A stretch of 64,000 nt of DNA from Patescibacteria group bacterium. GTDB lineage: Bacteria > Patescibacteriota > Microgenomatia > UBA1400 > PJMF01. The notes beneath the pieces were generated by a model, which searched no databases, had not been told where the DNA came from, and saw only the letters and a program-made list of their open reading frames with translations. Shown here one piece after another: positions 31,767 to 62,147 of the stretch. Position 1 is the stretch's first letter. Every line of letters begins with the position of its first letter. The position numbers were made by a program, and so were the translations under genes. The stretch spans positions 92,746 through 156,745 of the forward strand of contig JBDTME010000002.1 in NCBI GenBank assembly GCA_039934415.1, given 5' to 3'.

Positions 31767-31768
31767 TA

Positions 31769-35499: not shown

Positions 35500-35760
35500 A
35501 TGCCAAGAAGTAACGAAACAACATATCACAGACCAAGAGTTGAATTGAGTGTTGAAACTCAAAACGAGTTGCTCACTAGATCGATGGCTGCTGTTTTACA
35601 AAATGAAAATATTCAGCCAGGAGTTAGTCTTACTGATCTTTCTACACATGAACAAAATCGTCTAACCTTACTGGCAAATAGACTTTATGTTGAGTTGAGA
35701 CGAGAGTGGATACAAGCACATGTGAGTCAAAAGATAGAAGAGAAGCCTCTAACAGCTTAA
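35500..35760 (+). CDS. hypothetical small protein (86 aa)
   Basis: An ORF downstream of a strong promoter with an AAAAGG RBS-like context. No motif. Confidence 0.35.
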   Translation: MPRSNETTYHRPRVELSVETQNELLTRSMAAVLQNENIQPGVSLTDLSTHEQNRLTLLANRLYVELRREWIQAHVSQKIEEKPLTA

Positions 35761-35791
35761 GCAAAACTTCAGATATTGAAAAAAATAACAA

Positions 35792-40078: not shown

Positions 40079-41137
40079 TCATTCTACCTTAACGGCTGGT
40101 GAGATAGCTTCGACGTTAAAGATGCTATTGTTTTTGTCTTTTCCAACGCCGTAAAAATGGATGTATGGCAGAATGTATCCATTCTGTTCGTTTTGTCTGT
40201 ACTCCAAGGTGGCCGAGCTAAACTCAACATTGGAGAGGTTCTCGGCATTTGGTTCAATAGCATCAAAGTTTCCTGCGTGAATATAGGTGATGAGACCGGC
40301 AAGCATCCTATCCTCGACTCCACCAAGCCCCAGAGAGTTTACGATTTGTACTTGTTCAAAACTGCTTGGAACAGGATAAAAGCTGATTTCTAAAATACTT
40401 GCATTTTTGTCAACTCTAATGATCGCTGGAGATTGAACCTTATCACTGGAAATGAATGGAATATTGTCTACTAAAGTGTTGAGTGTAATTTTGTACGCAT
40501 TTGTTGAAGCCTCGTCTTTTGCTGGTTCAGTACTTTCTGGATTTACGCTTTGAGGTTCTGGTTCTGAAAGTGTGTAGTTTTGGAACAACTGGTGTTCGTC
40601 GATAAACGACCGAATTTTTTTTGCTATTTCCTCATGAGTTACGGTTGCCGTTTTGGGTAAAGTATCATCTAAAATGCTGAGCAGAATGTCTTTCTTATAC
40701 GCAATGAGTGTCGCGTTGCCACTCGTTGTCAACTGATATTCTTGGTTGGCATCTTGCCAAGCGTTGCTTGTCCCAGGTACTGGAGTAAGCGGAAGTTGCT
40801 TAGCGAGTTTTTGTATGGTTGTTTCAATTGTTTCTGGTTGCAAGGCTTGATAAACAGCCAGCTTGCTAGGCATGCTCATTGTCAAGTTCTTATCGAAAGT
40901 GATTTGTGCTTTATATGTTTTTTCTGTAGTGACCACGGTTTCCGCTGGAGGAGGTGTTGGTGTCAGTGCCTGCAAAATAGCCGAAATAACAACAGCCAAA
41001 CCCATTATTACAATAAACACTCTCAACCATTTCTTCTGAAATAGTTTTGTGATGAATGATGGAAGTTGCAATCGATTATTTTCCATAATATTCGTCACAT
41101 CTTGGTCCTTCAGGTACTTTGCCAGCAGTGCTGACAC
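40079..41137 (-). CDS. hypothetical membrane-anchored protein (T4SS locus)
   Basis: 352 aa with one N-terminal TM helix. Its start overlaps the end of the preceding gene (41076..41137). Confidence 0.35.
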   Translation of the reverse strand: MSALLAKYLKDQDVTNIMENNRLQLPSFITKLFQKKWLRVFIVIMGLAVVISAILQALTPTPPPAETVVTTEKTYKAQITFDKNLTMSMPSKLAVYQALQPETIETTIQKLAKQLPLTPVPGTSNAWQDANQEYQLTTSGNATLIAYKKDILLSILDDTLPKTATVTHEEIAKKIRSFIDEHQLFQNYTLSEPEPQSVNPESTEPAKDEASTNAYKITLNTLVDNIPFISSDKVQSPAIIRVDKNASILEISFYPVPSSFEQVQIVNSLGLGGVEDRMLAGLITYIHAGNFDAIEPNAENLSNVEFSSATLEYRQNEQNGYILPYIHFYGVGKDKNNSIFNVEAISPAVKVE

Positions 41138-44100
41138 CTAATGTTTGAATTAAGGCATAGTCACTCAAACCTCTAATCTCATAGTGTAAGTGATTTCCAT
41201 CAGATGCTCCACCAGGACCATGCGTACTATCAACATGACCTACTAATTGTCCACCCTCAACCGTTTCGCCCACGTGGACGACGATTCCACCATCAATCTG
41301 ATGGGCGTAATAAGAAAGCCAACCACCGTGATCAATGACTAACAGATTGCCAAACGCATTATTGTCACGTTTAGTGGTGACAACTGTAACAACGCCTGGT
41401 GCAGCGGCGTAGATAGGAGTGTTTAATGGAGCCGCAATGTCGTAGGCGTCAGGACGAACTTTGAATCCGCCACAATGACTCCAACTTGGATGTGTAATAC
41501 ATTGTTGAGTTAAAACTGGGTGACTTATGGGACCAGTACCATATGGAAGTTGAGTCACCCTCCCTTTTACAGGCCAACAAGGAGGAACGGTTGTTGTCGG
41601 ACAATCTCCAAAACAGGTCTGTGCCCGACTGGTACTGCTGTCAGCTTGACCAGCTGCGGTGATGTTTGCCTTAATATCATTTTTGACCAAAGAATCACTA
41701 AAACGAGAGTCTGATGCATCGACGGTGAATTGAAGATGAATCGGCTGATCTGCTGTGAGTGGTTGGCCTGCCAAAGCAGCGAGTTGGTCAGTGAGTTCCT
41801 GAGGGAGAGCTGGCGGATCAATCACGTTCGAATCTTTATCAATTGCACTCATAGTATCTGTGAGTCCCGTAATGACGATCTCTTCCGTTGCCTCAGGTTT
41901 TTTGGAGAGGTCAATTGTGTATGTGATCGGACCTTGCGCATTAGAGTTGCTGGGTTGGGCAGTTTTTTTCAAAGTGATGTATCGCGATTCGTCAGCATCT
42001 AGCGAAAAGTATGGTGCGACTTGAGTGACGCTGGCATCGGGGAGGAAAGCGCTTAGGATCATGGATGTGGTGAAGATGTTTGCGATGACAATAGTTACTA
42101 GTGGGATGCCAACGGCAGCAGCTATAGTAGCCGTAGAGCCTGTGATACCTTGTGCAGTCAGTGTCTGTGCAGCTCCTTCTAAGAAGCCTGTAGTTTGACC
42201 CGCTGCAGTTGAAACTGCCGGTCTGGCAAAGTTGCTTAGTGCAGCTTTAGTACTTGATGGAAGAGCGCTCGCATAACTAGATGTACTTCCGGCATCAGAG
42301 GCGCCTTTCATAAATCCTGCTATGCCGCCCGCGATTGCTCCAACACTTGCCCCGATGGCTGTTCCAACCACTGGAAAAAAAGAGCCAATGATTCCACCGG
42401 CCACGGCACCACCAGCCACACCACCAAGTGTTGTGCCTGCCACACCCTGCACCATGTTTGTGATGATTCCGTAAATGGCTGCACCAGTTCCGGCAGCACC
42501 ACCAACGACAAGCACACCTTTTTTAAGCTGTGATGAGCCAATTTTTGTAGCCGTCCCCTGAAGACTAGCGGCATTGAGATTTCCTATGCCCTTGGCTCTG
42601 CCTAACCAGTCTCTTAAATTACTTAATCCTTGAACATTTCCTACCTGTGGAGCGTTCCAAGATTGATGTGGGACTGCTGTGTCATATAAAGCCTTATTGA
42701 AAGCCGCACGACCTTGATTGTCGAGCTGAGTTTGTCCTGCCGGAAGAAATTGCTGGCGATCAACCCCCAACATATTGCTGTAAAAGACTTGTTCTTGTTC
42801 ATCAAGATTGTTAATTTGTGCCTGTAACTGGTTGAGATACTGATTGCGAACGTAGAGCGCCTCAGCTCTCAGAAATTTTTCTTGTTCTGAAGCTTCTGCT
42901 GGAGTAATTGCCAAATCTCGAGTGAAAAAAGCATGAGCCAGAACTTTATCTGTATTGGCTTTATATTTGGGGGAATACGTTTTGATCAATTCTCGATATT
43001 GCTCCGTGGAAAGAGAGAGGGGTGTTGTCTCTCCGGGCTCAAGGCTATGAGTAAGTAAATTATTTTGGGTGTAGTTTGCCAACGCATGTTTTCGTTGCGC
43101 GACGTACGACTCCATGATCTGTAAAACCTCTTGATTGTTTCTGAGACTAGGATCGAGCTCGTTGAGCATGACCTTAAGATTGTCAGAGAGGAGATGAGGA
43201 CTACCGAGTGATAACGCGTAAGAATCAAGAGTATTGAGAATATTTATTTCAGCGGAGCCATCTTTATTATAAGTTCGTAATAAAGAGACGAGCGCTTCTT
43301 TGGGATTGTCTTTGCTGAAGCGTTGAAACTTGGCAAAGTTTTCGAAGTTGGCTTGAGTTACTGTTTTGCCATTTGTCTGCAATTGTTTGAGATAGACATC
43401 TATTTGTCCGAGCAGTTTTTTGCGTTCATCTGCTCCGAGAGAAAAAATGTTTTCTGGAAAGATCTGACGGAGTTCAAGAGGATCTAAGGCAGAGATTCCA
43501 GTCCCTTTCGTTCTTGGAGCTCGTCTCAAAATTTCATCGCCGAGGTTTTCGATTGACTCTGCAGAAACCATTGCTTCAAAAGTCGCAATTTGCTTGAGTT
43601 GCTTTTTAAACTCTTGTTTGGCGAGTTCTGAGTAATCTTGTGGAGCATCTTCTGAGTCGATTTTTTCTGAAAAGAGTTGGGTGGCATCCTCGGCAGTTTT
43701 AAGTGATCCTTTGAAACTCGTGTCGTTAAAAGCCTTGAGTTCAAACTTCTCTTTTAAAATTTCAGTTTTTAAGAGAAAGTACTCGTTGTTGCATAAGCGC
43801 TTATAAATTTGATCAACGTGTGAAAGCAGTTGTTGTCGGATCGTAATTCTGTCGGTGATTGATAGCCGGCCAGATTCAGCAAGTAGCAATGCGAATTGAG
43901 GGTTTTCTTGAAGATAGAGAGAAATGACTCCTGCAATATCCTCTTGGAGCGAGAATAATTGAAAGTCGAGTTGTCTTTGTTCATCGGCTGGTAGTTTGTT
44001 GTAAAACGTTCGCCAATCAGCGACATCTAGAGCCGAGTTCAACACTTCATTCATCAGGGCGCCAGAGTCTCTCCAACCTTCTTGAGCGGCGATTTTTTGA

Positions 44101-44771
44101 ACTTCAAATGGTGAGGGAGGTGTTTGTTCGTCCGTGCGGGGTACATTCTGAGCGTCATTTTCTGCTGGAGTTTGTTCTGTCTGAGATTTCCTGAAAGCGC
44201 CACCGCCGACATAACTCCCATCGACTTCTTTCTCAGATTTGTCTTTGGTTTTTTCTTCGTTTGCTTGAGCTTCGTCTGGAGCTGCTTCCCCAGATATTTT
44301 TCGTGCGATTAAATCCTCACTGATACTCCTCAATAGTTGGAGAGCGTTGTTTTCTTTGAGCAAGTACCGTCGGACATATTCATCGCGATTGAGTATGTCA
44401 CTTTCTGATTTCTCGTCATTGGGAAGGAAAAACAAGGGCATTTTTTCAAATACTTTTGGATTCTTCCGGTTAACTTCAGTGAAGATGAGATTTAAAAAAT
44501 AGCGAACTTGGTTTTTATCCTCCGCTGCTTCGGATGCAGTAAAGATTGAGTTGAATCGGGTAGGAATAGTTTGGTTGACCTTGCTACTCACTAGTTCATC
44601 TAAAGTGTCGACGATTTCATCTAGAAAATCAGGGAACTCTGGAAGTGCCAGTACTGTTTCTAGGGAGAGCGGGTCGAAATCAACTTTGTGTTTTTCTAGC
44701 TCGTCGATATACGTGGATAGCGCACTAGAATTCAGAAGCGTCGATGGTTGTTCAAATACCGTAGTTGCCAT
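41076..44771 (-). CDS. large T4SS-associated protein with a glycine-zipper TM region and a C-terminal M23 peptidase domain
   Basis: The C-terminal M23 (LytM) motifs are HGGWLSYYAH, H.VGETVEGGQLVGHVDSTHGPGGASDGNHLHYEIR. The central Gly/Ala-rich segment is GVLVVGGAAGTGAAIYGII...GGIAGF. 1,231 aa. Confidence 0.7.
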   Translation of the reverse strand: MATTVFEQPSTLLNSSALSTYIDELEKHKVDFDPLSLETVLALPEFPDFLDEIVDTLDELVSSKVNQTIPTRFNSIFTASEAAEDKNQVRYFLNLIFTEVNRKNPKVFEKMPLFFLPNDEKSESDILNRDEYVRRYLLKENNALQLLRSISEDLIARKISGEAAPDEAQANEEKTKDKSEKEVDGSYVGGGAFRKSQTEQTPAENDAQNVPRTDEQTPPSPFEVQKIAAQEGWRDSGALMNEVLNSALDVADWRTFYNKLPADEQRQLDFQLFSLQEDIAGVISLYLQENPQFALLLAESGRLSITDRITIRQQLLSHVDQIYKRLCNNEYFLLKTEILKEKFELKAFNDTSFKGSLKTAEDATQLFSEKIDSEDAPQDYSELAKQEFKKQLKQIATFEAMVSAESIENLGDEILRRAPRTKGTGISALDPLELRQIFPENIFSLGADERKKLLGQIDVYLKQLQTNGKTVTQANFENFAKFQRFSKDNPKEALVSLLRTYNKDGSAEINILNTLDSYALSLGSPHLLSDNLKVMLNELDPSLRNNQEVLQIMESYVAQRKHALANYTQNNLLTHSLEPGETTPLSLSTEQYRELIKTYSPKYKANTDKVLAHAFFTRDLAITPAEASEQEKFLRAEALYVRNQYLNQLQAQINNLDEQEQVFYSNMLGVDRQQFLPAGQTQLDNQGRAAFNKALYDTAVPHQSWNAPQVGNVQGLSNLRDWLGRAKGIGNLNAASLQGTATKIGSSQLKKGVLVVGGAAGTGAAIYGIITNMVQGVAGTTLGGVAGGAVAGGIIGSFFPVVGTAIGASVGAIAGGIAGFMKGASDAGSTSSYASALPSSTKAALSNFARPAVSTAAGQTTGFLEGAAQTLTAQGITGSTATIAAAVGIPLVTIVIANIFTTSMILSAFLPDASVTQVAPYFSLDADESRYITLKKTAQPSNSNAQGPITYTIDLSKKPEATEEIVITGLTDTMSAIDKDSNVIDPPALPQELTDQLAALAGQPLTADQPIHLQFTVDASDSRFSDSLVKNDIKANITAAGQADSSTSRAQTCFGDCPTTTVPPCWPVKGRVTQLPYGTGPISHPVLTQQCITHPSWSHCGGFKVRPDAYDIAAPLNTPIYAAAPGVVTVVTTKRDNNAFGNLLVIDHGGWLSYYAHQIDGGIVVHVGETVEGGQLVGHVDSTHGPGGASDGNHLHYEIRGLSDYALIQTLGVSTAGKVPEGPRCDEYYGK

Positions 44772-44876: not shown

Positions 44877-45134
44877 TTAGTAGACTTCTTCGTGCGTGCC
44901 AATGTCGATGAAGAAGATGACATCCTCTTCTTGTAAAAAAAGAATTCTGACACTCATATTTACGTAGGCTGACACGACTTCAGTGTTTTTTAATTTATGT
45001 AGTTTTAAAGAAGGATGTTTTGGATTGTTCTTTATTAGCTTGATAGTTTTATTTACTCGGTATTCCCAATCTGTGTTCTTCTTAATGAGCTTTTGCAGCT
45101 TCTTGGCAAAAGATGCCGAAAAAATTAAACGCAT
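44877..45134 (-). CDS. type II toxin, RelE/ParE superfamily
   Basis: 85 aa with the basic beta-core pattern. Its start is 3 nt after the stop of the upstream antitoxin. Confidence 0.6.
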   Translation of the reverse strand: MRLIFSASFAKKLQKLIKKNTDWEYRVNKTIKLIKNNPKHPSLKLHKLKNTEVVSAYVNMSVRILFLQEEDVIFFIDIGTHEEVY

Positions 45135-45136: not shown

Positions 45137-45400
45137 TTATTTGAGTGAGTCGAAGAATTTATCAACGTCTTCATCTGTTTCCAAAACAGTACTTTTACCT
45201 ATAGCGTAATCCCTTTTGGCTTCTTTGATCAGATCTTCGTAGGGATCTTTTTGAACGAGTCTTCGGAGAGCGTCACGAATAACATCACTAAATGAGCTGT
45301 AAAAACCTAAGTCAACGAGTTCTTCGGCCTGAGCCTTGAGTTGTGCTGGTAGGGAGATGTTGATGGTAGCCATATGCATCATTATACAATAATTATACAA
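45137..45400 (-). CDS. type II antitoxin, ParD/CopG ribbon-helix-helix family
   Basis: ISLPAQLKAQAEELVDLGFYSSFSDVIRDALRRL is RHH-like. The true start is probably the internal Met at 45373. Confidence 0.6.
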   Translation of the reverse strand: MYNYCIMMHMATINISLPAQLKAQAEELVDLGFYSSFSDVIRDALRRLVQKDPYEDLIKEAKRDYAIGKSTVLETDEDVDKFFDSLK

Positions 45401-47380: not shown

Positions 47381-49138
47381 TTATTTTCGTTCGATACCGT
47401 AGAGGTTGCTTTTCAAAGAGATGCGACCGGGAGCTCGTAGATTAAAAATTTCTTTAAATTCACTACTACTCATTCGAAGTTCGCCACGATTAGTTTGGAA
47501 CACAACTGAAGATGTCGTGCCAGCAGAGGAGTGTTCCACTTTGACTGAAGAGATGGAACTGTATGCACCACCTTTGCTATCTGCTCTCGACTTCATCTCA
47601 TCAATGCTCCATGAATCGCTTCCCCAACATGGTCCGAGTGGTCCAACTTTATCGGCGTCGCCTCCACCAGCTTTACGGACAACCCAAGCATTTAAGATAT
47701 CTGCCATCTCATTTTCGCGTAACCAAGGTGAATCTTTACCACAAGTATCACCCCCGCGAGTGGTGTACCACGCTTTGTAAAACCAAGGACTACCACCTTT
47801 TTTCTCATATGCTCCATCAGTCCAGTTTGACCAGTCTGAAGTGGAGTCCCAAAGACCAGGAACACTATGGCCAACCGAAGTATATCCAAGCAAATGTCCG
47901 CCAGCCGTACTAGCATACATGGTACTAAATACGTCGCCTGTGGCTTTACTGACGAGCACTTTTCCTTTGGTGGCATTAACTGCATCGTGCCACGCGCCAC
48001 CGGCTTGGAACTTGCTGGATTTATAGACCTGACACGCTTCGGTGACACAAATTGAGCCTTTGAGTGACTGGTTTCCCATGCGCCACCCCAAGTACGAGAG
48101 AGCATAGGTACGAGCGGCGATGGCTTGGGCTTTGAGCGCTTCAGAGTTCCAACTCCCTGGCATTTCTGCGATGCCTTTTAGGTACTGATTTTCAAATGGC
48201 ATAGTGCCGACAGAAGTGGCAACGGTGTCTGGCATCGACACATCTTTTATTTCGACGTCACCGTAATATGCTTTGAGAATTTGTTCGTAACTTTGGCCGG
48301 ACTCGGCTCTTCCTTTGGCTCCGTATTGACTCATACCTTTAAAATGTGGCGCGCCAAAACTAAACACCGCAAACGCAGGTGAAAATCCTGGATTGTAACT
48401 CGGAAGCGATTTTGGATCACCGCCCTCTGGAACCTCTCCGACTGAAGTTGTGGCGGTCCCGGCTTTGCTGGCGATAATTTGTTGCTGTTGTGCTGTTAGA
48501 CTTGCGATTTTGCCAGAAACTTCTGATTGATAGGTTTTGGCTTTAGAAATTTCCACATCAAAAAACTTTTTCTGCTCATTGAGAGTGATCTGGAGGGCGG
48601 CCAGTTTTTTTTGGTCATCCTCGAGTTTCTTTTTGTCGGTTTGTAGGTTGATGATGTCTTGAGCTGTGGATTGAATAATGCTTTTGTCTTGATCTTGAGC
48701 AGAGGCTTTATATGCCAAGTCTCGTGTGATGTTTTGTAAATCACCTTGTGCAAAAAAAATCATAAATGGCGATGGCGATTTACTTCGTTTGTAGCGTTCT
48801 GAGACTCGATAGGAGAAAAGAGCAATTGTGTCGGCGAGGTCATCTTCTCGCTGTGTGATATTGACAGCCAGTTTTCCGGCGTTTTTTTTGGCCGAATCGA
48901 TACCGGATTGGGCGTTTTTGACGCGTTGGGACAGAGAAGTGGCTTGTTGCTCCAAAGGTTTCGTCGCATCCTCAGACTGCTTTTTCATTTTTTCCAACTC
49001 ATTGATCTGATTTTGCAACTCTTCGACTGGGTCGATGGCGCGAGTCGCGGTTGGGAGGAGGGAGCAAGAAGTAAGGAGGATACCAATGACGAGAAGGCGA
49101 AAAAAGTGTGGTGGTCGAAAATGGTTTGAAGTGGGCAT
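47381..49138 (-). CDS. SpoIID/LytB domain protein with an N-terminal signal/TM and a long coiled coil
   Basis: The SpoIID core AQAIAARTYALSYL...CVTEACQVY. The N-terminal ~250 aa is coiled-coil. Confidence 0.7.
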   Translation of the reverse strand: MPTSNHFRPPHFFRLLVIGILLTSCSLLPTATRAIDPVEELQNQINELEKMKKQSEDATKPLEQQATSLSQRVKNAQSGIDSAKKNAGKLAVNITQREDDLADTIALFSYRVSERYKRSKSPSPFMIFFAQGDLQNITRDLAYKASAQDQDKSIIQSTAQDIINLQTDKKKLEDDQKKLAALQITLNEQKKFFDVEISKAKTYQSEVSGKIASLTAQQQQIIASKAGTATTSVGEVPEGGDPKSLPSYNPGFSPAFAVFSFGAPHFKGMSQYGAKGRAESGQSYEQILKAYYGDVEIKDVSMPDTVATSVGTMPFENQYLKGIAEMPGSWNSEALKAQAIAARTYALSYLGWRMGNQSLKGSICVTEACQVYKSSKFQAGGAWHDAVNATKGKVLVSKATGDVFSTMYASTAGGHLLGYTSVGHSVPGLWDSTSDWSNWTDGAYEKKGGSPWFYKAWYTTRGGDTCGKDSPWLRENEMADILNAWVVRKAGGGDADKVGPLGPCWGSDSWSIDEMKSRADSKGGAYSSISSVKVEHSSAGTTSSVVFQTNRGELRMSSSEFKEIFNLRAPGRISLKSNLYGIERK

Positions 49139-49192: not shown

Positions 49193-49597
49193 TTAGGGTT
49201 GCAGGCGGATGTTTTTATCAATCTTGTCAAAGTCTTTGTCAAAGGAGATAACCTTTGTTGAATGAGTTTTAGCTTTTAGCGCGAGATAACAATCCACAAA
49301 ATCAATGTTTTTGTTTTGAAAAGTATCTAAAGAATTCAAAAGCACACTTTTGTTTACCGTTACAACCTGTTTATTTTGAAAGAAAATGAACAGAAAATGA
49401 ACGGCTTCCTTTTTTGAAATGTTATATTTCCCTCCTGTTGATACAAATAGAAATTCACTGATTACTAAGGGGTCAATAAAAAGAATCTGATTCTGTATCA
49501 AAAGGTTTTCGATTATTTTTTCGGCTTTCTGTGCCTGTACCGGATGATCTCTCAAAAAAAGTCGTAACAGAATATTGGTGTCGACAAGGTATGTCAT
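49193..49597 (-). CDS. vapC: PIN-domain toxin (VapC-like)
   Basis: MTYLVDTNILLR with the conserved acidic residues of the PIN fold. It overlaps the upstream antitoxin by 4 nt. Confidence 0.65.
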   Translation of the reverse strand: MTYLVDTNILLRLFLRDHPVQAQKAEKIIENLLIQNQILFIDPLVISEFLFVSTGGKYNISKKEAVHFLFIFFQNKQVVTVNKSVLLNSLDTFQNKNIDFVDCYLALKAKTHSTKVISFDKDFDKIDKNIRLQP

Positions 49598-50001
49598 GAT
49601 TCTTCAGCGAGTTCTTTCATCAATTGCTCGTCTTTTTGCTGGTAATACTCAGCCATTTCTTTTCTGTACTGTTTTTTTGAAATTGGTTTACCTTCATAGG
49701 TAGCAGCAGCTTCTCTTACTGAAGAAATGAATTCGTGTACAGAAATATATTTGGTCAATTTTTCTTCTGGATCTAAGATTTGGATTTGAAAAGTCTGTCC
49801 AGGGGAAAGATCCAAGGATTTGACCAGCTCTTTAGGGTAGGTCACTTGTCTTTGAGTGGTCATTTTCAATGAGAATGTTTGCATGTCCATTATTTTAACA
49901 TCACCCATTACTCTGTCAATTAGTAATGAGTGTTGTGGCGTTCGAGGAACATCTACGCGCAAACCGCTAGACTGAAGAACGAACTTTCGCTGGTAAACCA
50001 C
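49594..50001 (-). CDS. vapB: VapB-like antitoxin (SpoVT/AbrB-type swapped-hairpin region)
   Basis: QRQVTYPKELVKSLDLSPGQ resembles an AbrB/MazE DNA-binding segment. The true start is probably an internal Met (MDMQTF...). Confidence 0.45.
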   Translation of the reverse strand: MVYQRKFVLQSSGLRVDVPRTPQHSLLIDRVMGDVKIMDMQTFSLKMTTQRQVTYPKELVKSLDLSPGQTFQIQILDPEEKLTKYISVHEFISSVREAAATYEGKPISKKQYRKEMAEYYQQKDEQLMKELAEES

Positions 50002-50166
50002 CCTTTCTGATTGAGTTATAGGTCTTTTTATGGTAAAATGGCGGGGTATTTTTCGATGGGCGAGTCAGGTTTAACTGACGAGCCATAAGAAAAGTACACG
50101 CACTTTAACGAAGTTGCAGGCCTGGCCCGTCATCTCCGGGTATCAGGTCTAGAAAGGGAATTTGAG

Positions 50167-50982
50167 ATGAATAGTTTAATGGAGCGCTTCACGGCGTTCC
50201 AAGACCTCCTCCGTAACTCGGAGGAAGGCCCGTTGAAGCGGGCGCGGGAATGGGGTGCCACCGTACTTTTGGGTGCCTTTATCGTTTTTGGATTGTTGTT
50301 TGCTGAGAGCCAGGCCCTCAGTAGCAATTTTCGGGCCCGGCCCGGCGAGATTGAACTCGCCGTGGTCGTGGCAGTAATCGCCTGCATCTGGTCGCTGCTC
50401 GTGGGAGCCAACTGGAGCGACATGGCTAGTTTAGCCGCCGCCGGTTTAGTGCTTTGGTTTATCGTTCGACTGGCTCTATTTGGGGTGGTCGAGCGGACAG
50501 GTGCGACCAGCGGCGAGGCGACGCTGCTGGTACTGGTTTTGATTGGAGTGGGGATTGCTCTCTGGATGTACAGAGAGCAGTTCACCTCCGCAACCAGCTG
50601 GGTGCGCGAGCAAGTCGGACGTGCCCTGCTGAAAGTCAAAGCGCGCGCTCGTTGGCAAAAAGCCGCAGTTTTGCTGCTCGCGATTTTTGCGGGGGGCATA
50701 TTCTGGGCGGCGACCCAGAGTTGGCTGGCCTTCGGGCCAGTAGTGGTTGTTGTTTTTGTTTGGCTCGCAAGTTGGTGGCTAACGCCGCCGACTCCGGAAG
50801 CCGGAACGCTCCCCCCAGGGACAGGGGAGCATGAAGAAGTAACCGACGAGGTTGTTGACCTCGTTGAAGAAGAAGAAGCGCCGGCGGCCCTGCCGGCAAT
50901 AATTGAACCTATCACCTCACCAGTCGAAGAGGCTTCATCCGACACGGACGAAGACCTTGATGATTGGGTGTTGGGTGTGTAG
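50167..50982 (+). CDS. hypothetical polytopic membrane protein encoded in a GC-rich island
   Basis: 271 aa with ~6 hydrophobic helices and an acidic C-terminal tail. Its GC content is markedly above the flanks. A TTGAGT-17-TGgTAAAAT promoter-like element sits ~125 nt upstream. The antisense ORF 50130..51050 is low-complexity and probably not real. Confidence 0.45.
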   Translation: MNSLMERFTAFQDLLRNSEEGPLKRAREWGATVLLGAFIVFGLLFAESQALSSNFRARPGEIELAVVVAVIACIWSLLVGANWSDMASLAAAGLVLWFIVRLALFGVVERTGATSGEATLLVLVLIGVGIALWMYREQFTSATSWVREQVGRALLKVKARARWQKAAVLLLAIFAGGIFWAATQSWLAFGPVVVVVFVWLASWWLTPPTPEAGTLPPGTGEHEEVTDEVVDLVEEEEAPAALPAIIEPITSPVEEASSDTDEDLDDWVLGV

Positions 50983-51190
50983 TTTGTCCCTCTTCGGTTT
51001 TCGGATCGAAGAGGGATGTTTTTAAAAAAATAAGAATTATTTATTAACAAACCAAAAAAAGTCAGCTTTCTAACGTAACAGTCAGAGAATTAGCGCATTT
51101 ATAGAAATAGAACAAGAACGAAGTAGAGAAAAGCAGTACAGCTTATAACTTTAAAAACACTGAAAATACTCTAGAAATACCAGGCGTAAT

Positions 51191-51988
51191 ATGTTAAAAT
51201 CACGACCTTCTATGAAGAAAATGCTGAAAAGTGTTCTAGCGTTTTTGTTTTTGATTTCATTTTTTGTGCGTTTTTTCTCACCTGTTTCAGCTGAAGTAGT
51301 CGCACCAACGTGTTCGGCTATCTCTGTTCCGATAACTTTAACGGCCTCAGATGCCAATATCAATATTACCTTCAATCCATCACTTGGTTTACAAGATGAC
51401 GGGAGATATCGTTTCAACTACGAAGATGCTTCTGTGGATCATAATGTAACCGAGTACTTCGGTCGAGAAGACGATCGTTCAAATTGGAGTGTAGATTTTT
51501 CCTTTAACACTGTCATTGCCGCACCTCAGACGTTGGCACTACAAAATCTCGATGGACAACAGTTTTGTCTCGTTACTTTTCGATATGACCAAGCATCAAA
51601 CACTGTATTAGTGACCAAACCAGGTCAGGGGCAAACTCCAGAATCATTTAATCTGTGTCAACAAGCTGGTACCAATCACGGAACTTGTGATGCATGTTTA
51701 GCTAATGGCGAAATATGGACGGGTGTAGGATGCATTCCTTTCAAAACTGGCGTTGCAACCGTACGAGCAATTATTGTATTAGGACTCGGGATTACTGGTA
51801 CCGCGGTAGTACTAATGACACTCTATGCCGGGTTTATGTTTAGCACCTCGCAAGGTGATCCTAAACGAGTCGACGAAGCCAAAAGCGCTGTGACCTCAGC
51901 GATCATCGGCGCCTTTTTCATCATTTTCTCCGTCACCATCCTCCAATTCATTGGAGTAAGCATCTTGCACCTGCCAGCTTTCGGGTAA
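51191..51988 (+). CDS. secreted protein with a C-terminal T4SS pilin-like domain (candidate minor pilin/adhesin)
   Basis: A signal peptide, a ~150-aa domain, then GVGCIPFKTGVATVRAIIVLGLGITGTAVVLMTLYAGFMFSTSQGDPKRVDEAKSAVTSAIIGAFFIIF (helix - charged loop - helix), which resembles the small pilins at 290..1394. Confidence 0.5.
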   Translation: MLKSRPSMKKMLKSVLAFLFLISFFVRFFSPVSAEVVAPTCSAISVPITLTASDANINITFNPSLGLQDDGRYRFNYEDASVDHNVTEYFGREDDRSNWSVDFSFNTVIAAPQTLALQNLDGQQFCLVTFRYDQASNTVLVTKPGQGQTPESFNLCQQAGTNHGTCDACLANGEIWTGVGCIPFKTGVATVRAIIVLGLGITGTAVVLMTLYAGFMFSTSQGDPKRVDEAKSAVTSAIIGAFFIIFSVTILQFIGVSILHLPAFG

Positions 51989-52043: not shown

Positions 52044-53285
52044 GTGAAAAAAATTCTTCTCACTTTTTTGTTCGCTTTCCTCTTTTTGGCTACAAACGTC
52101 AAAGTAGTTTTTGCAGATAATGACACTTTAGGGGTTTACTGTGATGTTACTGTGAATGGTGTGGCGTTGTCGTCAACTCAAGATTCTGCGCCGACAATCT
52201 ACGCGAGTAGAAAAGATGGAGCAAATTACGTCTACCCTTTTAAAGTGTGTGGAAATTTAGCGCTTTTGAATAATCTTCCTACTGGTGTCAAACCTGTGAT
52301 CGACATGACACCGTATCACTTCGACTTTACTGCTTTTCAACCGTCAGAAAGAATAAACCTGACTCAAGATGGTAGTTGTTTAGTTGGTGAATACTCCAAA
52401 AACCTTGCACCAAATGGGAAGACCGTCGACTCCGTTTATGATGTTGAAGGTGATAATTCTGGGAATACGCCTATTTGTCATCGAGTGTTCGCTAGGCTAG
52501 CACCAAGTGTGTTAGCGGATACCGCTGCTTGGGCGAACGCTAGTACGATGTGCGGGACAATCGGCCTGGACCCTGTTGCACCAATCCACAATGACAACGT
52601 GACTATTGATTTTGTTCTCCCTGAACCATTTTGGACAAATGCGATTAACTCCCCAGAAGGAATCTCATACAGTGGTTTACATTATAAATTGATTCGTTCT
52701 GCTGATGGCGCTGAGCTACAAAATGGAGAAGTTTCTGGCATTATAAATGGAGGACTGGCAGATCCTCATATCTTTGAACATGTTGACCACATGGATGCCG
52801 GTAACTATCGAGTAAAATTCGTCTTAGAAGGGAGTAATGGTAATTTAGATATTTGCGAAAGAAGTTTCGACGTTGGTACTCAGAATGATCCAGGGAAACT
52901 GAATGATAGCGTAGGTTCAGTTGACGAATTTAAGTTGTGTAATCAAGCAGGTCCGCCAGGTTCCGACTCTTACACGGCATGTAACAAATGTTTTTATAAC
53001 AATAGCGGTATTTGGACTGGAGTGGGGTGTATTCCTTATACGAACACTGCCTTGATGGTTAGAGCTCTTATCGTTTTAGGATTGGGCATTGCAGGCACTG
53101 CGGTAGTACTGATGACACTAGCTGGGGCATTTTTGATGTCCACCTCTAGGGGAGAACCTCAAAGAGTTGAAGAAGCGAAGAGTTTGATTACATCTGCCGT
53201 TGCTGGAATATTTTTCATCATTTTTTCTGTAAGTATTTTACAATTTATCGGTGTGAGTATTCTGCATATCCCTGGGTTCGGATAG
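52044..53285 (+). CDS. secreted protein with a C-terminal T4SS pilin-like domain, paralog of 51191..51988 with a larger N-terminal domain
   Basis: The C-terminal ~110 aa is nearly identical in pattern (IWTGVGCIPYTNTALMVRALIVLGLGIAGTAVVLMTL...RVEEAKSLITSAV...). The ~300-aa N-terminal domain is different. Confidence 0.5.
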   Translation: MKKILLTFLFAFLFLATNVKVVFADNDTLGVYCDVTVNGVALSSTQDSAPTIYASRKDGANYVYPFKVCGNLALLNNLPTGVKPVIDMTPYHFDFTAFQPSERINLTQDGSCLVGEYSKNLAPNGKTVDSVYDVEGDNSGNTPICHRVFARLAPSVLADTAAWANASTMCGTIGLDPVAPIHNDNVTIDFVLPEPFWTNAINSPEGISYSGLHYKLIRSADGAELQNGEVSGIINGGLADPHIFEHVDHMDAGNYRVKFVLEGSNGNLDICERSFDVGTQNDPGKLNDSVGSVDEFKLCNQAGPPGSDSYTACNKCFYNNSGIWTGVGCIPYTNTALMVRALIVLGLGIAGTAVVLMTLAGAFLMSTSRGEPQRVEEAKSLITSAVAGIFFIIFSVSILQFIGVSILHIPGFG

Positions 53286-53299: not shown

Positions 53300-54136
53300 A
53301 TGATCAAGCTAAAGTTTTTTGTCCTTCTGCTTTTTTTCGTAAGTTTTTTTGTTGTGACCTCTCCAGCTCATGCTCAACAATGTATGACTGATGGTAGTGT
53401 TCCTTGTGCTGCTGGATTTGTTTGTGATTGTACTGGCGAGCCTGGATGTGGCCAAGATGCGACACGTGGTGAGTGTAAGCCAGTGCCGAAACCAAATGGT
53501 TCACTGTGCGGAGCTAATACTGAGTGTACGAGTGGGTATTGTAATATTGTATGTACCGTACCACCTTCATCCCTGCCTAGCTGTATTCCTGGATCAGCTT
53601 TTGACAACAAAATAGACCCTCGGATGAGTAGTTGTTTGGAAGGAACTGTTATTCGCTATCAATGTGGAACAGGCTATCAACTGGACATAAGTACAAAAAT
53701 CTGTAATGCACTCCCGACGACTAACTCACCCGCCCCAGCACCATCGGACAGTACTGTGCCGACTCCTCCAGATTCTTCAAGCGGAATAGCCAACGGGCTT
53801 TTTTTGTTTTTAGTAAATCCCTTAACTGTCACTGGAAATAAGAATCCACTGGCAGGAATCATTCAAGGTTTTACGAATGTCACCCAAACCTTCACCACTC
53901 CGGCTGGTTTTCTCAATGCCTTGATGCCTTTCCTTTTTTCGATTGCTGGCATAATATTGTTCGTGATGATCATTTGGGGTGGTTTTGAGATGATCTATGG
54001 GGCAGCCGATACCAAGGCTCAAGAGGCTGGTAAACAACGTATTACCGCCGCTCTAATCGGCTTTACCCTTCTGTTCATCTCTTACTGGATCGCGCAGATT
54101 TTGCAGGCGATCTTTGGGGTGAATATTTTAGGGTGA
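53300..54136 (+). CDS. Cys-rich secreted protein with a C-terminal T4SS pilin-like domain
   Basis: An N-terminal Cys-rich module (CMTDGSVPCAAGFVCDCTGEPGCGQ...). The C-terminus FLFSIAGIILFVMIIWGGFEMIYGAADTKAQEAGKQRITAALIGFTLLFISYW matches the pilin architecture. Confidence 0.5.
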   Translation: MIKLKFFVLLLFFVSFFVVTSPAHAQQCMTDGSVPCAAGFVCDCTGEPGCGQDATRGECKPVPKPNGSLCGANTECTSGYCNIVCTVPPSSLPSCIPGSAFDNKIDPRMSSCLEGTVIRYQCGTGYQLDISTKICNALPTTNSPAPAPSDSTVPTPPDSSSGIANGLFLFLVNPLTVTGNKNPLAGIIQGFTNVTQTFTTPAGFLNALMPFLFSIAGIILFVMIIWGGFEMIYGAADTKAQEAGKQRITAALIGFTLLFISYWIAQILQAIFGVNILG

Positions 54137-54194: not shown

Positions 54195-57100
54195 TTGAGA
54201 AATATGGTAAAATCTGGGTCAAATATGAACGAAAGAAGAGTCGAGGTACCAGTCGATCCAGAAAAGCGTTTCGTTAAAGAAACGTTTGGTATGATTTTTG
54301 CTGATCTGCCTATCAAGGCGGATTTTAAACGCAGGATTATCTCAGCTCTGCGTGTACTTGATGAAGCTATTTTGGATGTTAACGGTCAACCTTTAGATCT
54401 TAGTCCCATTAAAATAAAAGTACAAAAAGATAATATTGAACTGTTGTACGTAATGATTTCCTCATTGCGTACCTCTCCCGAACTGTTAGAAAGTCCCGAC
54501 GCCATAGATAGCTTTGAAGATCAATTGAAAGTTGTGGGAGAACAAGTTGGCAGTATCTTGGATACTTACGAGAACATCCTAGCTGATATTGAAAATCCAC
54601 TTCCAGTCGTCGCAGTAGAAACCCCTCCATTGAGTGATAAAGAAGTCGTTGATCAATTTATTGCAAGTGAACCTTCAATCGCTTCGGAGTATCAACAAAT
54701 ACTCAATATCACACCTAATTTCCCAGATTTGACAATTCGAGACAAGTACCCGTTTGCTGGAGATGATGACGAAGGTCGAGACCGAGCAGGCCTAATCATC
54801 CAAGCAGATAAATTGAGGATCACCTTGCTGACTAGAGCTGTCGAAAATGCACTCGAGCGTCGATATGTGGGTAAATCCGAATCAGAAGCCCGAGAAAAAA
54901 TCATTATTCAACAAAAGCTATTACGACCTTTAGATGAGTTGTCAGATAAACTGCAAGGACAAATTTTGAAGGAGTTCTTAGAGTCATATGACAGAGCTGA
55001 ACTAGGGGAATTATTATATGGGGAGGAGGACGGGTTACTTGATGAGCCACCTTTCACCACCTTACTTGCAGATATTGATGAAGTGGGGGATAAGGTATCC
55101 AAGGAACCTGTGGGATATTCTGGATTAACCAGTTTGGGAACATTAAAGCAAAGAATAGAGGCTAATTTTAAGGCAGCAGAAGTCCAGGCACAAGGTCGTT
55201 TACTCGCTTTAATTCCAGGCAAATTTCATGAAGAATTTCAGCGTACCTGGTCAACTCAGTATGCATTGAAGACAGCTCAATCTTTGAGAGCATTAGAGAA
55301 GCTATTTTATACAACTTTCGAAAAAACAGCTAATGATATTGGTCAGGAAGCTGATGGAATAATTCAGAACTATCAATCTTTGGCAACTCCAGATTTGCCT
55401 ACTTTATATACAGAGCAGAAGAAACTTTCCGACAAAAAAACAGAATTAGACAAATTGTTATACGTCAAGTTTTTTAGTGCTACCGAGAACAAAACCACTA
55501 CTGACATCGAAGACAAGGTAAAAGCAAAAATAAGCGAAATAGATAAGATAGAAGAAGAAATAGAGACTAAGCAGCTCGACCTGTGGAAACAAGATGTTTT
55601 ACCAGGTGAAATCCATCTCCTAGAGTTAAATGCCGCTGATACAGACGCAAAAACAGCTCTAGCTGGTACTGATAAGACGGTGATTGCAGCCGCGAAAGAA
55701 AGATTAGAAAAAGCCAGAAAAGAAGCGTTTGCGTTGGTACCAACGAAAGTCCTTGTCGACACGCAGGAAGTTCTTATCAAAGGTGCTTCCCACTACCTGA
55801 ATCAGCTCGTTGCAGCATCAGACCAGACAGTATTGGCTGCTGCTGAGAGATTGTCCACTCTGGACGAGGTTGAGCGTGAGGAAATGAAAACTAGTTTGTC
55901 TGGCCTCATAGAAAAGATCAACAAGCTCGACCTAGAGGATGAAACGCATACACTTGATTCACTGAAAAAAGAATATGCCGATGAGTTTAAAGATCTTGAA
56001 GATCGATTTGATAAAGGCGGCATTCCACCTGCATCAGTAAGTTCCAGATACGCAGAAGCCAAGAAAAAGCTTGGCATCATGGTAGAGTCGGCAACTATTC
56101 GTGGATATCCATTTTCTAAGGTTGTGAGTATTGCGAGCGAGAAAAACTATGACGTGTTTGTTGATACAAAGTCTACTCGAACAATCGCTGATCCTTATGA
56201 AAAGGCAATTGTGAAGAGAGTTCAGGCCTTATACTACACAGAAACTGCAAAGTTTGGAGTAAAGAACGCTGATGGCAGTATTGATGAAAATGATCCAGAA
56301 ACTGAAAAGCTACGAATTGAGCACCGAAGGCAAAAAGTCCGGATGTTTGCGTACCGTTACCGCGATGACAACTATCCTAAGACCGGTGTCCCAGCTGCAA
56401 AGCAGGAGAACTTATATAGCCTTTTTGGTCCTAGAAGACTTTCACGAAAAGACATCTTAGAGGGTGTCACCAATCATGAAATTTATGGTCAGCATACTCA
56501 AGATTTGCTTAGATATGTTATCGATGTCGTCGGGGAAGATATTCCTACAAGATCACCTAAACCAGCTGAAATGAATCCAGACGGAACAGTGAAAGAGAGA
56601 GCAAGGTTTTATACGGCAAGAGAGCTAGAAATTTGCTACGATGATCTTGCAAAAAATCCAGACGGACCTCTGAAGTTAGAGAATCATTTAAAAGAAATTT
56701 TTGTCGCTAGTGGTTTGTTGCCACTAGAACATTTTGAGATTGTCTGGAACCTATATATCACTTTCGATCTGGCTTCTATTTCTTTAGCGAAGCTCCAGAA
56801 AAGAACCAAAACACGAAGCCATAACCCCACTAAGCCTGTGGACACTGAGTACTTGTCCTATCCATTCCATGTCATGAGTCACAAACGAAACAGATATGGT
56901 AATTTGGACTCCGCACATCAGCATTTGTTGGAATTTACAGGTGATTACCCGAATGACGAAGAGAAAGACCAATTTGGTAATTTAGTGTACCGAGATGATA
57001 GCGGAAACGTTGTGCCAGCTGGAACTCGGGATTCTACAACTTATCTGTGGGCTGGAAATCAGAGTAAAAGGCATGGAACACACGTGCGGACGGTGAGAAC

Positions 57101-57941
57101 TACTCAAAGACTTGTCAGATTATGGACTAATGCATATTTTCCGACTAAAGGCATAGAAGGCAGGATTTACACTGATAAAAATCGACAAAAATTAAACCCA
57201 AAAACAGGAAAACAAGAGGATAACGACAATTATGAGGGCAATTGGAACAAGCCGATTTTCCCAGATCATTTCCAGTTTTTAACAGAATCTGAAGACAGAA
57301 TTGGAAATATTGATCTCTACACAACGGCGCAAAAGGGGTGGGATAAAATGCTCAAGATGACTGTTGGCCCGATAAGTGCCGGTCTGAAAATGCACGACAT
57401 CTTTGGAGCTGAGCATGGGTTATACACTGAATTTTTGAATAATGGTATCGGTTTAGCTAAGGTTGTTGCTGGCCCACACCACAACTGGTTTGTGCCAATG
57501 TTGAGATATCTTATTGGAAGAATAGGCGTTGGTTTTTATTCTGAGGCTGTGAACCACCGAGAAGAGTTGCGAAAGGAGTTGGTTGAACAGCTCAAGATTG
57601 GTACTGGAGTGCCTCGTGGTGCAGTCGGATTTGATGAGTTATTGGCCGAGCTAGAGGGGAAAGATGCAACTCAATTTGCGGGAAGTAGATGGAATAAAAT
57701 GCCTGATATCCTTAGACCGTTTGATCAAGGTAGAAGAAGAGATGAGCGCGTGGCTTACATGAGAGCATGGTATAAGGACAAGACTGACAAGGAGCCACCA
57801 TCTTTGTTGCAGCGAGTAAATCCTGGTAAAGATGAGTACATCAAGACCTATTATGATGCAATTGATGAAGTCATACCATTGCCTGTAATTATTGATCGTG
57901 CATCTGCCAGTACAGATACTGCAGAAAAGAAAGCAGCCTAA
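54195..57941 (+). CDS. large hypothetical cytoplasmic protein (1,248 aa) in the T4SS neighbourhood
   Basis: No signal peptide, TM helix or NTP-binding motif. The N-terminal half is acidic coiled coil and the C-terminal half is globular. A TTGTCG-17-TAAAAT promoter-like element lies upstream. Confidence 0.45.
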   Translation: MRNMVKSGSNMNERRVEVPVDPEKRFVKETFGMIFADLPIKADFKRRIISALRVLDEAILDVNGQPLDLSPIKIKVQKDNIELLYVMISSLRTSPELLESPDAIDSFEDQLKVVGEQVGSILDTYENILADIENPLPVVAVETPPLSDKEVVDQFIASEPSIASEYQQILNITPNFPDLTIRDKYPFAGDDDEGRDRAGLIIQADKLRITLLTRAVENALERRYVGKSESEAREKIIIQQKLLRPLDELSDKLQGQILKEFLESYDRAELGELLYGEEDGLLDEPPFTTLLADIDEVGDKVSKEPVGYSGLTSLGTLKQRIEANFKAAEVQAQGRLLALIPGKFHEEFQRTWSTQYALKTAQSLRALEKLFYTTFEKTANDIGQEADGIIQNYQSLATPDLPTLYTEQKKLSDKKTELDKLLYVKFFSATENKTTTDIEDKVKAKISEIDKIEEEIETKQLDLWKQDVLPGEIHLLELNAADTDAKTALAGTDKTVIAAAKERLEKARKEAFALVPTKVLVDTQEVLIKGASHYLNQLVAASDQTVLAAAERLSTLDEVEREEMKTSLSGLIEKINKLDLEDETHTLDSLKKEYADEFKDLEDRFDKGGIPPASVSSRYAEAKKKLGIMVESATIRGYPFSKVVSIASEKNYDVFVDTKSTRTIADPYEKAIVKRVQALYYTETAKFGVKNADGSIDENDPETEKLRIEHRRQKVRMFAYRYRDDNYPKTGVPAAKQENLYSLFGPRRLSRKDILEGVTNHEIYGQHTQDLLRYVIDVVGEDIPTRSPKPAEMNPDGTVKERARFYTARELEICYDDLAKNPDGPLKLENHLKEIFVASGLLPLEHFEIVWNLYITFDLASISLAKLQKRTKTRSHNPTKPVDTEYLSYPFHVMSHKRNRYGNLDSAHQHLLEFTGDYPNDEEKDQFGNLVYRDDSGNVVPAGTRDSTTYLWAGNQSKRHGTHVRTVRTTQRLVRLWTNAYFPTKGIEGRIYTDKNRQKLNPKTGKQEDNDNYEGNWNKPIFPDHFQFLTESEDRIGNIDLYTTAQKGWDKMLKMTVGPISAGLKMHDIFGAEHGLYTEFLNNGIGLAKVVAGPHHNWFVPMLRYLIGRIGVGFYSEAVNHREELRKELVEQLKIGTGVPRGAVGFDELLAELEGKDATQFAGSRWNKMPDILRPFDQGRRRDERVAYMRAWYKDKTDKEPPSLLQRVNPGKDEYIKTYYDAIDEVIPLPVIIDRASASTDTAEKKAA

Positions 57942-59820: not shown

Positions 59821-60813
59821 ATGTTATTTATCATTGGTCTTCATACTATGTTTAGAAAATATTGCGCCCTCTTCATTTTTTTATTCTGTTTCCCCCTCTC
59901 TATTAGTATTGGTGTTGCTCACGCCCAAACTGTAACCCCTCTCATTTTCCCAGATACGAGAGCTGCCTCCACCGTTGGTGCTGAAAGCAGTAGTGAAGCG
60001 AATGCAAGTGCTGAAGCAGAAGCGAGTGCCGCTGGCAAGATTCAAGAAAAAATTCAAGAAAAAACCACGACTGACTTGACACAAACGACAGGTTTAGTGA
60101 AGAGCCGGTTGGCTTTGTTATTAGATAGTCATCCGATTGGTCCACTCTCCATTGGGAACTTTATTCAATATCTGATTCGTCAAGCTGTGGACAGTGGAGT
60201 GCCAGCCAACATGTTGGTGCTGATGCTGATGTTCCCAGTAGTAGTATCCTTGATCGCTGTGTCGCGACACGTGATTGGCTTGGAGGGTTTTGGCGTGTAC
60301 GGTCCAGCCGTATTAGCTGTGGCGTTTGTTTCGACTGGGATCGTGACTGGTGTGCTGCTCTTTCTAGTCATCACTGCTGTTGCTTTGGTCGGACGAAGCG
60401 GTTTTCGTCAACTCAAACTCCAGTACCTTCCCAGAACTGCTTTGTTAGTATGGTTTGTTTCATTGATTATCTTTCTGTTGCTCGTTATCTCGCCATTCTT
60501 TAATGGACTCGTCAATCTAGCCGCAGTAGGTATCTTTCCAATCTTGGTGTTGATCTTGTTATCGGAAAACTTTGTGGGTTCTCAAATCTCTGCCAATTTT
60601 GGGCGTTTGGCCCAAGTCACTTTTGAAACTATTCTGCTCTCGGTCTCTACCGCTTGGCTGATGGGACTCACTCAAGTTCAGGATATCGTAATCTTGCATC
60701 CTGAGATGACAATCATTGGTGTTGCTTTGCTCGATATGGCGGTTGGTAAATACACTGGCCTTCGAGTGAGTGAGTTTTTCCGCTTTAAACCAATTATGGA
60801 TCAAGAAGAGTAG
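59821..60813 (+). CDS. polytopic (~6-7 TM) membrane protein with an N-terminal Ala/Ser/Glu-rich region
   Basis: Hydrophobicity pattern. It is the first gene of the co-directional set with the ATP-grasp and QEGLA proteins. Confidence 0.4.
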   Translation: MLFIIGLHTMFRKYCALFIFLFCFPLSISIGVAHAQTVTPLIFPDTRAASTVGAESSSEANASAEAEASAAGKIQEKIQEKTTTDLTQTTGLVKSRLALLLDSHPIGPLSIGNFIQYLIRQAVDSGVPANMLVLMLMFPVVVSLIAVSRHVIGLEGFGVYGPAVLAVAFVSTGIVTGVLLFLVITAVALVGRSGFRQLKLQYLPRTALLVWFVSLIIFLLLVISPFFNGLVNLAAVGIFPILVLILLSENFVGSQISANFGRLAQVTFETILLSVSTAWLMGLTQVQDIVILHPEMTIIGVALLDMAVGKYTGLRVSEFFRFKPIMDQEE

Positions 60814-60856
60814 AGTGCTGTTGTTTTTGAAAAATTAAAAAATTGAGATTGTATCT

Positions 60857-62146: not shown

Positions 62147-62147
62147 C

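Follow-up and report, generated by a model that had tools for sequence, protein, structure and literature searches.

Islands of high GC content in AT-rich genomes are usually structural RNA genes, and mRNAs can be stabilized by 5′-terminal stem-loops together with strong terminators, as exemplified by the E. coli ompA leader. In the vls system of Borrelia, the G+C content is 49% compared with 28.6%, and this composition and the accompanying GC skew are both conserved, with selection for gene conversion as the proposed reason (PMC11499132). For Patescibacteria, an origin-proximal, relaxase-less type IV secretion system (T4SS) has been described, with VirB2 arrays in Microgenomatia, and the T4SS locus is thought to be needed by candidate phyla radiation (CPR) bacteria for epibiotic life (PMC12102498). 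Here, we analyzed 64,000 nucleotides from a Patescibacteria group bacterium (contig JBDTME010000002.1, positions 92,746 to 156,745; this whole stretch is referred to as the window, and coordinates count from its first letter), in which a GC-rich island of about 1 kb lies in front of T4SS pilin genes. The island is one monocistronic unit that consists of a promoter, a leader, a 271-codon open reading frame (ORF), and a terminator. Our favored explanation, to which we give an even chance, is that this is a resident, fast-diverging membrane gene of the T4SS locus whose transcript has been selected to be GC-rich and highly structured. The GC-richness is probably a maintained property of the transcript and not a sign of imported DNA.

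In 200-nt windows, the GC content rises from 0.43–0.46 at 49.9–50.1 kb to 0.53–0.61 at 50.1–51.0 kb and drops to 0.30–0.40 beyond 51.0 kb. An 800-nt window over the plus-strand ORF (50170-50969) has a GC content of 0.581, compared with a mean of 0.419 (standard deviation 0.024) for the remainder of the 64 kb (z = 6.7). The jump between about 50.15 and 51.0 kb that had been noted in the initial annotation was thus reproduced by the sliding-window calculation, with 58% versus 42% for the window. As the highest 800-nt value outside the island is 0.509, the island is unique within the 64 kb. The second-highest GC peak of the window, 0.50 at 41.5–42.5 kb, comes from the gene of a 1231-aa M23 protein. 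The plus-strand ORF has a GC content of 58%, with 0.65, 0.47, and 0.62 at the first, second, and third codon positions (GC1, GC2, and GC3), compared with a host GC3 of 0.35–0.43. Its codon usage is shifted toward G/C-ending codons, G most of all, and is foreign to the genome: CTG has a share of 0.34 versus 0.10, CCG of 0.52 versus 0.13, and CGG of 0.34 versus 0.03. The GC skew on the coding strand is +0.1 to +0.2.

Sister loci were recovered with the divergent neighbor of the island as synteny anchor, a gene for a SpoIID-domain peptidoglycan hydrolase (47381-49138, minus strand; Pfam E 2e-18). Four of them, L002, L003, L004, and L005, with SpoIID proteins that are 76–83% identical, were informative. 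In all four, the same slot is occupied by a gene of 276–318 aa, which is transcribed away from SpoIID and in the same direction as the pilin genes. The slot gene has a GC content of 55% in L002, 52% in L004, and 59% in L005, in loci of 41–44%, and its GC3 of 0.69, 0.55, and 0.73, respectively, stands against locus medians of 0.33–0.37, so that the GC3 excess is found in four lineages, including that of the window. The slot gene of L003 (9006-9836 of that locus, minus strand) has 43% GC, a GC3 of 0.27, and a 35-nt leader that lacks the conserved blocks described below. The N-terminus of its protein is rich in His and similar to that of P0122, a homolog of the window protein treated below, but the protein has no significant similarity to the others, and the gene may be a decayed ortholog or a replacement.

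The four-fold degenerate sites of the SpoIID genes are 27–41% identical between these genomes, and 26–29% would be expected at saturation. As neutral sites are saturated, a composition that stemmed from a single ancestral transfer should have decayed, which argues that the GC excess is maintained. No comparable GC3-outlier gene was found near SpoIID in 80 Microgenomatia loci from GTDB (SpoIID at most 53% identical), and the feature therefore is confined to one genus-level clade. As even the best GTDB species representative has a SpoIID that is only 53% identical, the organism has no close genome representative. The SpoIID homologs with a named source all came from metagenome-assembled genomes labeled as Microgenomates group or Patescibacteria.

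The initial annotation had taken the island for horizontally acquired cargo that is stabilized by toxin-antitoxin (TA) genes. A GC-rich donor, whether through a single transfer to the clade ancestor or through repeated cassette replacement between the promoter/leader and the pilins, would agree with the codon usage, which is typical of an organism with 55–60% GC, with the sharp GC boundaries, and with coding sequences (CDSs) that cannot be aligned between the sister genomes although their flanks can. It would also agree with the co-occurrence of two different alleles of the GC-rich gene, carried by two related Microgenomatia, in one sample, SRR29476910, namely those of L005 (318 aa) and L112 (300 aa). 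After a single ancient transfer, however, amelioration would be expected, given the saturated neutral sites next door, and four independent replacements that end exactly at the start codon and at the terminator would be unparsimonious. The four proteins also resemble each other in length, topology, and motifs. An exhaustive phmmer search against 1.84 billion cluster representatives gave just two matches, an identical copy and a protein of 38% identity, with no homolog from a GC-rich taxon, and tblastn searches of phages and plasmids with the protein gave no match. The scan of the 64 kb for tRNA and tmRNA genes also gave none, the window ORFs that were scanned included neither an integrase nor a transposase, and the direct repeats that had been proposed for the island edges (about 50.0 and 51.05 kb) were searched for with no find of note. 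We therefore abandoned the interpretation as TA-stabilized cargo: four sister genomes have the gene in synteny and lack a TA pair at that place, the GC excess of the gene persists across lineages with saturated neutral sites, and it is the TA modules that vary. We regard a horizontal origin in either form as unlikely.

The transcription unit starts with a sigma-70-type promoter with an extended −10 element (TTGAGT-17-TG-n-TAAAAT, 50011-50039, plus strand), detected in a consensus scan and kept as TTGAaTTATAGG...TGGTAnAAT at the same position in L002, L003, L004, and L005. The 5′ leader of about 121 nt (50046-50166, plus strand; its start was deduced from the −10 element) opens at the presumed 5′ end with a hairpin of 52 nt (50046-50097, GTATTTTTC...GAAAAGTAC) and closes with the Shine-Dalgarno sequence AAAGGGA (50153-50159), 7 nt before the ATG. 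The leader folds with a z-score of −4.0 relative to shuffles, and its blocks GTAyTwTTC, GAAnAGTACAy, and TTwAC are common to the window, L002, L004, and L005. A strong promoter-like element followed by a structured leader had been predicted, and both parts are thus supported, the promoter by four sister genomes and the leader by three. The leader blocks do not occur elsewhere in the 1.26 Mb of fetched loci, and a metagenome scan with the promoter pattern gave 20 matches, all of them unrelated sigma-70 promoters without the leader. The CDS of the 271-aa polytopic membrane protein, which is GC-rich and dense in hairpins, follows at 50167-50982 (plus strand), and the unit ends with an intrinsic terminator at 50985-51023 (plus strand), a 15-pair stem (50985-51018) followed by TTTTT. 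In the window, L002, L004, and L005, 3′ hairpins of 10–15 pairs end the transcripts.

Two long antiparallel ORFs are indeed open across the island, the plus-strand ORF of 271 aa and a minus-strand ORF of 306 codons (50130-51050), which is Ser/Thr/Ala-rich and has no Pfam hit. The suspicion that the latter is a compositional artefact and not a gene proved justified, since the longest antisense open stretches in the GC-rich orthologs are only 148 (L002), 103 (L004), and 165 (L005) codons and the antisense frame is fully open in the window genome alone. The plus-strand ORF, in contrast, is a real gene. Its sense frame is open in all five loci, with 271–318 codons in the four GC-rich ones, and 2000 shuffles of the island did not yield a single open stretch of at least 271 codons. 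The codon-position pattern, GC1 > GC3 > GC2, is coding-like. The homolog from the phmmer search, P0122 (274 aa, JGI 3300078620), shares 38% identity over 225 aa without a frameshift (E 1.5e-26). The ribosome-binding site (RBS) lies among the most accessible 1–10% of windows in all four GC-rich transcripts (top 10% in the window transcript), and together with an ORF that is kept at 270–320 codons in every lineage, this favors translation. The prediction of a multi-pass membrane protein with an acidic tail is therefore supported.

As GC-rich islands so often are RNA genes, we also considered that the ORF is fortuitous and the island a purely non-coding RNA gene. The very strong fold z-scores reported below would fit this, and a G+T-rich strand easily gives transmembrane-like translations. 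Yet the open frame in five of five loci, which was unmatched in the shuffles, the homology at the protein level, the coding-like composition of the codon positions, the Shine-Dalgarno sequence at the correct spacing, and the lack of any Rfam match all speak against it. We rejected this candidate as excluded by the conserved frame and the protein-level homology, and rate its probability as close to nil.

The transcript 50042-51030 has a predicted minimum free energy (MFE) of −464 kcal/mol (about −0.47 per nt), with a z-score of −9.2 relative to dinucleotide shuffles, and pairing is predicted for about two thirds (65–70%) of its nucleotides. Negative z-scores (−0.9 to −7.5) were obtained for each of the 14 overlapping 150-nt windows between 50000 and 51124, whereas flanking windows scatter around zero. 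In a next calculation, synonymous codons were exchanged among their positions in each gene, so that the protein, the codon usage, and the GC3 stayed the same. The native sequence folded better than every permutation, with z-scores of −7.8 for the window, −4.5 for L002, −3.5 for L004, and −6.0 for L005. Eight control genes from the same genomes, including the slot gene of L003 (z −1.2), ranged from +1.0 to −1.5, and nine GC-rich ORFs from unrelated GC-rich contigs ranged from +0.5 to −3.3. That three of these nine also reached about −3 would be compatible with a horizontal origin, but such an origin leaves the z-scores of −6 to −8 relative to synonymous shuffles unexplained. The leader and the folded CDS co-occur, as both are present in L002, L004, and L005 and both are lacking in L003.

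These folding data raise the alternative that the nucleic acid itself is functional, be it as a dual-function structured RNA with an ORF or as a hairpin-rich single-stranded DNA that is used by the conjugation-derived T4SS, with a protein that is only loosely constrained. The extent of predicted pairing and the MFE over about 1 kb are in line with it, as are the conservation of the leader next to an almost completely diverged protein, the presence or absence of leader and folded body only together, the strand-symmetric folding, which is compatible with DNA hairpins, and the position of the element inside a T4SS locus. However, Rfam 15 at the gathering threshold gave no match in the window or in L002–L005 (OLE, GOLLD, ROOL, HEARO, group I/II introns, RNase P, and tmRNA included), and at E ≤10 there was only noise on the island, over the terminator. 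Every lineage has an ORF of 270–320 codons with an accessible RBS, and Pfam scans of the window ORFs of at least 120 aa revealed no relaxase or oriT-like context. We therefore consider a function of the nucleic acid itself distinctly unlikely. In its most far-reaching form, which we likewise rate as rather improbable, the unit of about 1 kb would be an undescribed bifunctional element, an rRNA-like folded RNA or a hairpin single-stranded DNA in the T4SS/pilus apparatus, that encodes a loosely constrained membrane protein, and this protein might have arisen de novo from the G+T-rich strand of a structured RNA. Such an element would jointly explain the conserved leader, the maintained GC content and folding, and the near-total divergence of the protein.

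Several aspects weigh against our favored explanation of a resident gene with a selected transcript, which for now rests on five metagenomic loci and on thermodynamic predictions. These five related loci are the only ones found, and all of them are metagenome assemblies. One of them, L003, has a slot gene without the GC and folding feature, and this gene may not be homologous to the others. Taken by itself, the codon usage of the plus-strand ORF looks like that of a gene from an organism with 55–60% GC, just as horizontal transfer predicts. Since GC-rich controls reach a z-score of −3.3, the folding excess of L004 is borderline and that of L002 moderate, and only the window and L005 are clearly exceptional. 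The folding z-score of the antisense strand is nearly equal to that of the sense strand, and because of this symmetry the calculation can neither separate selection at the RNA level from DNA inverted repeats nor name the strand. A census of UUCG and GNRA tetraloops for the strand question yielded too few cases. The enrichment of G over C at third positions, which would suit a sense RNA rich in U, is no more than suggestive. Finally, the CDSs are not alignable at the DNA level and there are only four leaders, which leaves no basis for covariation. RNAalifold found no consensus for the four leaders, and the contigs with identical proteins are also 100% identical at the DNA level, without polymorphism that could show compensatory changes.

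With these aspects in mind, we infer that selection acts on the RNA rather than on the DNA, and the purpose of the folding is likewise deduced. The gene stands at the head of the VirB2-like pilin array of an origin-proximal T4SS locus on the chromosome of an uncultured member of the Microgenomatia (CPR/Patescibacteria). In our model, it would be translated and vertically inherited within a genus-level clade, and it diverges very fast, like other envelope parts of the T4SS. The G/C-ending codons would supply stable stems, and selection for extensive pairing would maintain the GC content. The transcript would combine a 5′ hairpin, a folded coding body, and a strong 3′ terminator with an open RBS, and the most likely consequence would be a long-lived mRNA, encoding a membrane protein of the secretion/pilus apparatus and translated slowly or tightly.

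The 271-aa protein is predicted, with low confidence, to have about six transmembrane helices besides a helix at the N-terminus, and in addition a Pro-rich linker (TPPTPEAGTLPP) and an acidic tail that is disordered. The proteins of the four GC-rich loci are Trp-rich (3.7–6.8%), prefer Arg over Lys, and are alike in length and topology. They have a few motifs in common (PGE, FVWLAS..LTPPT, and conserved Trp and Arg residues), but the orthologs in L002, L004, and L005 are only 20–26% identical to the window protein. There is a gradient of identity across the sister loci: SpoIID and RecF reach 70–83%, PrgI about 75%, the pilins 43–65% (with one 116-residue stretch of pilin 2 at 71%), the M23 protein 46–47% in loci with the complete gene, and the proteins of 352 aa and 1248 aa 25–33%. 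The 271-aa protein forms the extreme end of this gradient. Pfam and NCBIfam gave sub-threshold matches only (PsbH, DUF4131, OadG) with the five family members, and no VirB6, TrbL, or PrgH profile of either database matched any of them. The homology search that had been recommended for the protein thus left the identical copy and the 38%-identical P0122, and a word-indexed protein search, run with this protein alone and with a profile of five sequences, found self matches only. An AlphaFold2 model from a three-sequence alignment reached a pLDDT of 50 and a pTM of 0.21, and due to this low pLDDT it is unusable for fold comparison.

A hyper-divergent gene in the locus of a surface apparatus, with raised GC content and a coding-strand skew, also brings to mind a recombination-driven bias, that is, a hotspot of GC-biased gene conversion or an expression site for antigenic variation of the vls/pilE type, for which vls of Borrelia is a precedent (PMC11499132). 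However, blastn with a word size of 7 and tblastn revealed no silent cassettes, partial copies, or paralogs in the 64 kb, and there were no G4 motifs. The sequence is identical across samples, which argues against rapid switching, and the 300-aa allele is 100% identical at the DNA level in three samples of the same study. The adjoining pilin genes evolve equally fast but have ordinary GC content, the GC rise follows the CDS and not the conserved flanks where conversion tracts would end, and the skew is far below the 0.52 of vls. A recombination-driven bias is thus very unlikely. A diversity-generating retroelement was not detected either: Pfam scans of the window ORFs of at least 120 aa found no reverse transcriptase domain, and the only related match was RVT_3 on RNase H.

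The TA modules named in the initial annotation are both present. Directly before the island lies a gene for a VapC-type PIN-domain toxin (49193-49597, minus strand; Pfam PIN E 4.3e-18), an accessory insertion outside the island, and a putative VapB antitoxin gene (49594-50001, minus strand) overlaps it by 4 nt. The antitoxin has only a weak MazE/AbrB-type hit (E 0.048), but the arrangement of a PIN toxin with an overlapping small upstream gene is that of VapBC type II systems. As there is a minus-strand promoter-like site at 49919-49892, the ORF 49594-50001 is probably over-extended at its 5′ end. The second pair, about 5 kb upstream of the island, comprises a YafQ/RelE-like toxin (44877-45134) and its partner, a ribbon-helix-helix antitoxin (45137-45400). 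This pair is inserted between the M23 and the Carb_kinase-family genes, which are directly adjacent in L002, and at the equivalent site L108 has other small TA-like genes. In the interval from SpoIID to the promoter, the window has one VapBC pair, L002–L005 have none, and L108 (298-2502) has three TA pairs (HTH/PIN, PIN, and Phd/PIN_3). As the counts vary in this way, the TA modules are the mobile part, and they use the intergenic spot beside SpoIID as a landing site. In L006 (222-901), two small unannotated genes occupy the same spot.

The gene of the polytopic protein sits between a SpoIID/M23/PrgI/VirB4 block and the pilin array. The array encodes three VirB2-like T4SS pilins on the plus strand (51191-51988, T4SS_pilin E 8e-6; 52044-53285, E 1.6e-4; 53300-54136, E 1.3e-7). 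Synteny of the array holds in L002, L003, and L005, and in L004 for the part that precedes the contig end. It is followed by the gene of a large protein of 1248 aa without a Pfam domain (54195-57941), which is 25–29% identical in the sisters. On the other side, dnaA (33760-35364) and a VirB4-like ATPase gene (35792-37729) precede TraC-like and PrgI genes and the gene of the M23 hydrolase (41076-44771; 1231 aa, with a multi-helix membrane region rich in Gly and Ala and an M23 peptidase at the C-terminus), and then follow a gene of the Carb_kinase family (NAD(P)H-hydrate dehydratase), recF, and the SpoIID gene. By this gene content, the T4SS of the window matches the origin-proximal type that was reported for Patescibacteria (PMC12102498). 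The genes around the island are thus those of the core chromosome (dnaA, dnaN, yidC, and recF) and of the T4SS, and the window is part of the chromosome near the replication origin.

The origin gene set (RNase H, jag/khpB, yidC, dnaN, and dnaA) adjoins the VirB4-like ATPase gene (29496-37729 in total). The minimum of the cumulative GC skew lies at about 16–17 kb, at a switch of gene orientation (15616-17580 on the minus and 17619-19385 on the plus strand), and not at dnaA. A second pilin array, two small T4SS_pilin genes (128 and 124 aa) at 290-1055 on the minus strand, stands beside the gene of an ECF-type sigma factor (1490-2083) and has no GC-rich gene in front. Mevalonate genes (GHMP kinase and diphosphomevalonate decarboxylase) and undecaprenyl-diphosphate synthase are encoded at 4005-7257. 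Since mevalonate genes stand beside SpoIID and a single pilin gene in the distant loci L109 and L110, the locus has been rearranged. Beside the T4SS locus, a three-gene cluster at 59821-63131 encodes a 7TM protein of the type that usually occurs as a fusion with an inactive transglutaminase, together with an ATP-grasp enzyme associated with sugar transfer and a MATCAP-like carboxypeptidase. The cluster looks like a peptide ligation and modification system, and its 7TM gene is syntenic in L002 and L003.

A deviating composition is routinely taken as a sign of horizontal transfer. Here, an island of +16 GC points is a resident, syntenic gene. Its anomaly has outlasted a complete turnover of the neutral sites, and this speaks for selection that acts on the nucleic acid itself. 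Should the folding be real, the island would be a natural case of a whole bacterial coding sequence that is shaped by mRNA structure. The gene is also a candidate for the polytopic, VirB6-like T4SS subunit that is missing in Microgenomatia, for which VirB6 homologs are reported to be scarce, "suggesting extreme sequence divergence" (PMC12102498). Like subunits of the VirB6/PrgH type, the product would be a polytopic inner-membrane protein encoded in a T4SS locus beside VirB2-like pilins, but it has no match to their hidden Markov models and lacks a large extracytoplasmic loop.

With a classical genomic island, the locus shares the atypical composition and codon usage and the adjoining TA modules, whereas this gene is syntenic in the sisters and comes without integrase, tRNA, direct repeats, or donor homologs. 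The likeness to vls of Borrelia, with vlsE and its silent cassettes, consists in a variable, surface-related gene in an AT-rich genome whose G+C content exceeds the background by some 15–20 points, with an excess that is conserved across lineages and for that reason attributed to selection. Unlike vls, the island has no cassette array, head-to-head inverted repeat, or paralogs, its skew is about 0.15 and not 0.5, short-term variation is lacking, and the product is a polytopic membrane protein and not a lipoprotein. The large RNAs GOLLD, ROOL, and OLE, the latter with its partner OapA, resemble the island in length (about 1 kb), in being GC-rich relative to the genome, in the dense predicted structure, and in the link to a membrane protein, but the island has no Rfam match, and its structured RNA is itself the coding sequence. 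Stabilized mRNAs of the ompA type share with it the hairpin at the presumed 5′ end, the open RBS, the strong 3′ hairpin, and the monocistronic mRNA for an envelope protein. To our knowledge, however, a GC-enriched and over-folded coding body over its whole length, as in the island, has not been described for mRNAs of this type.

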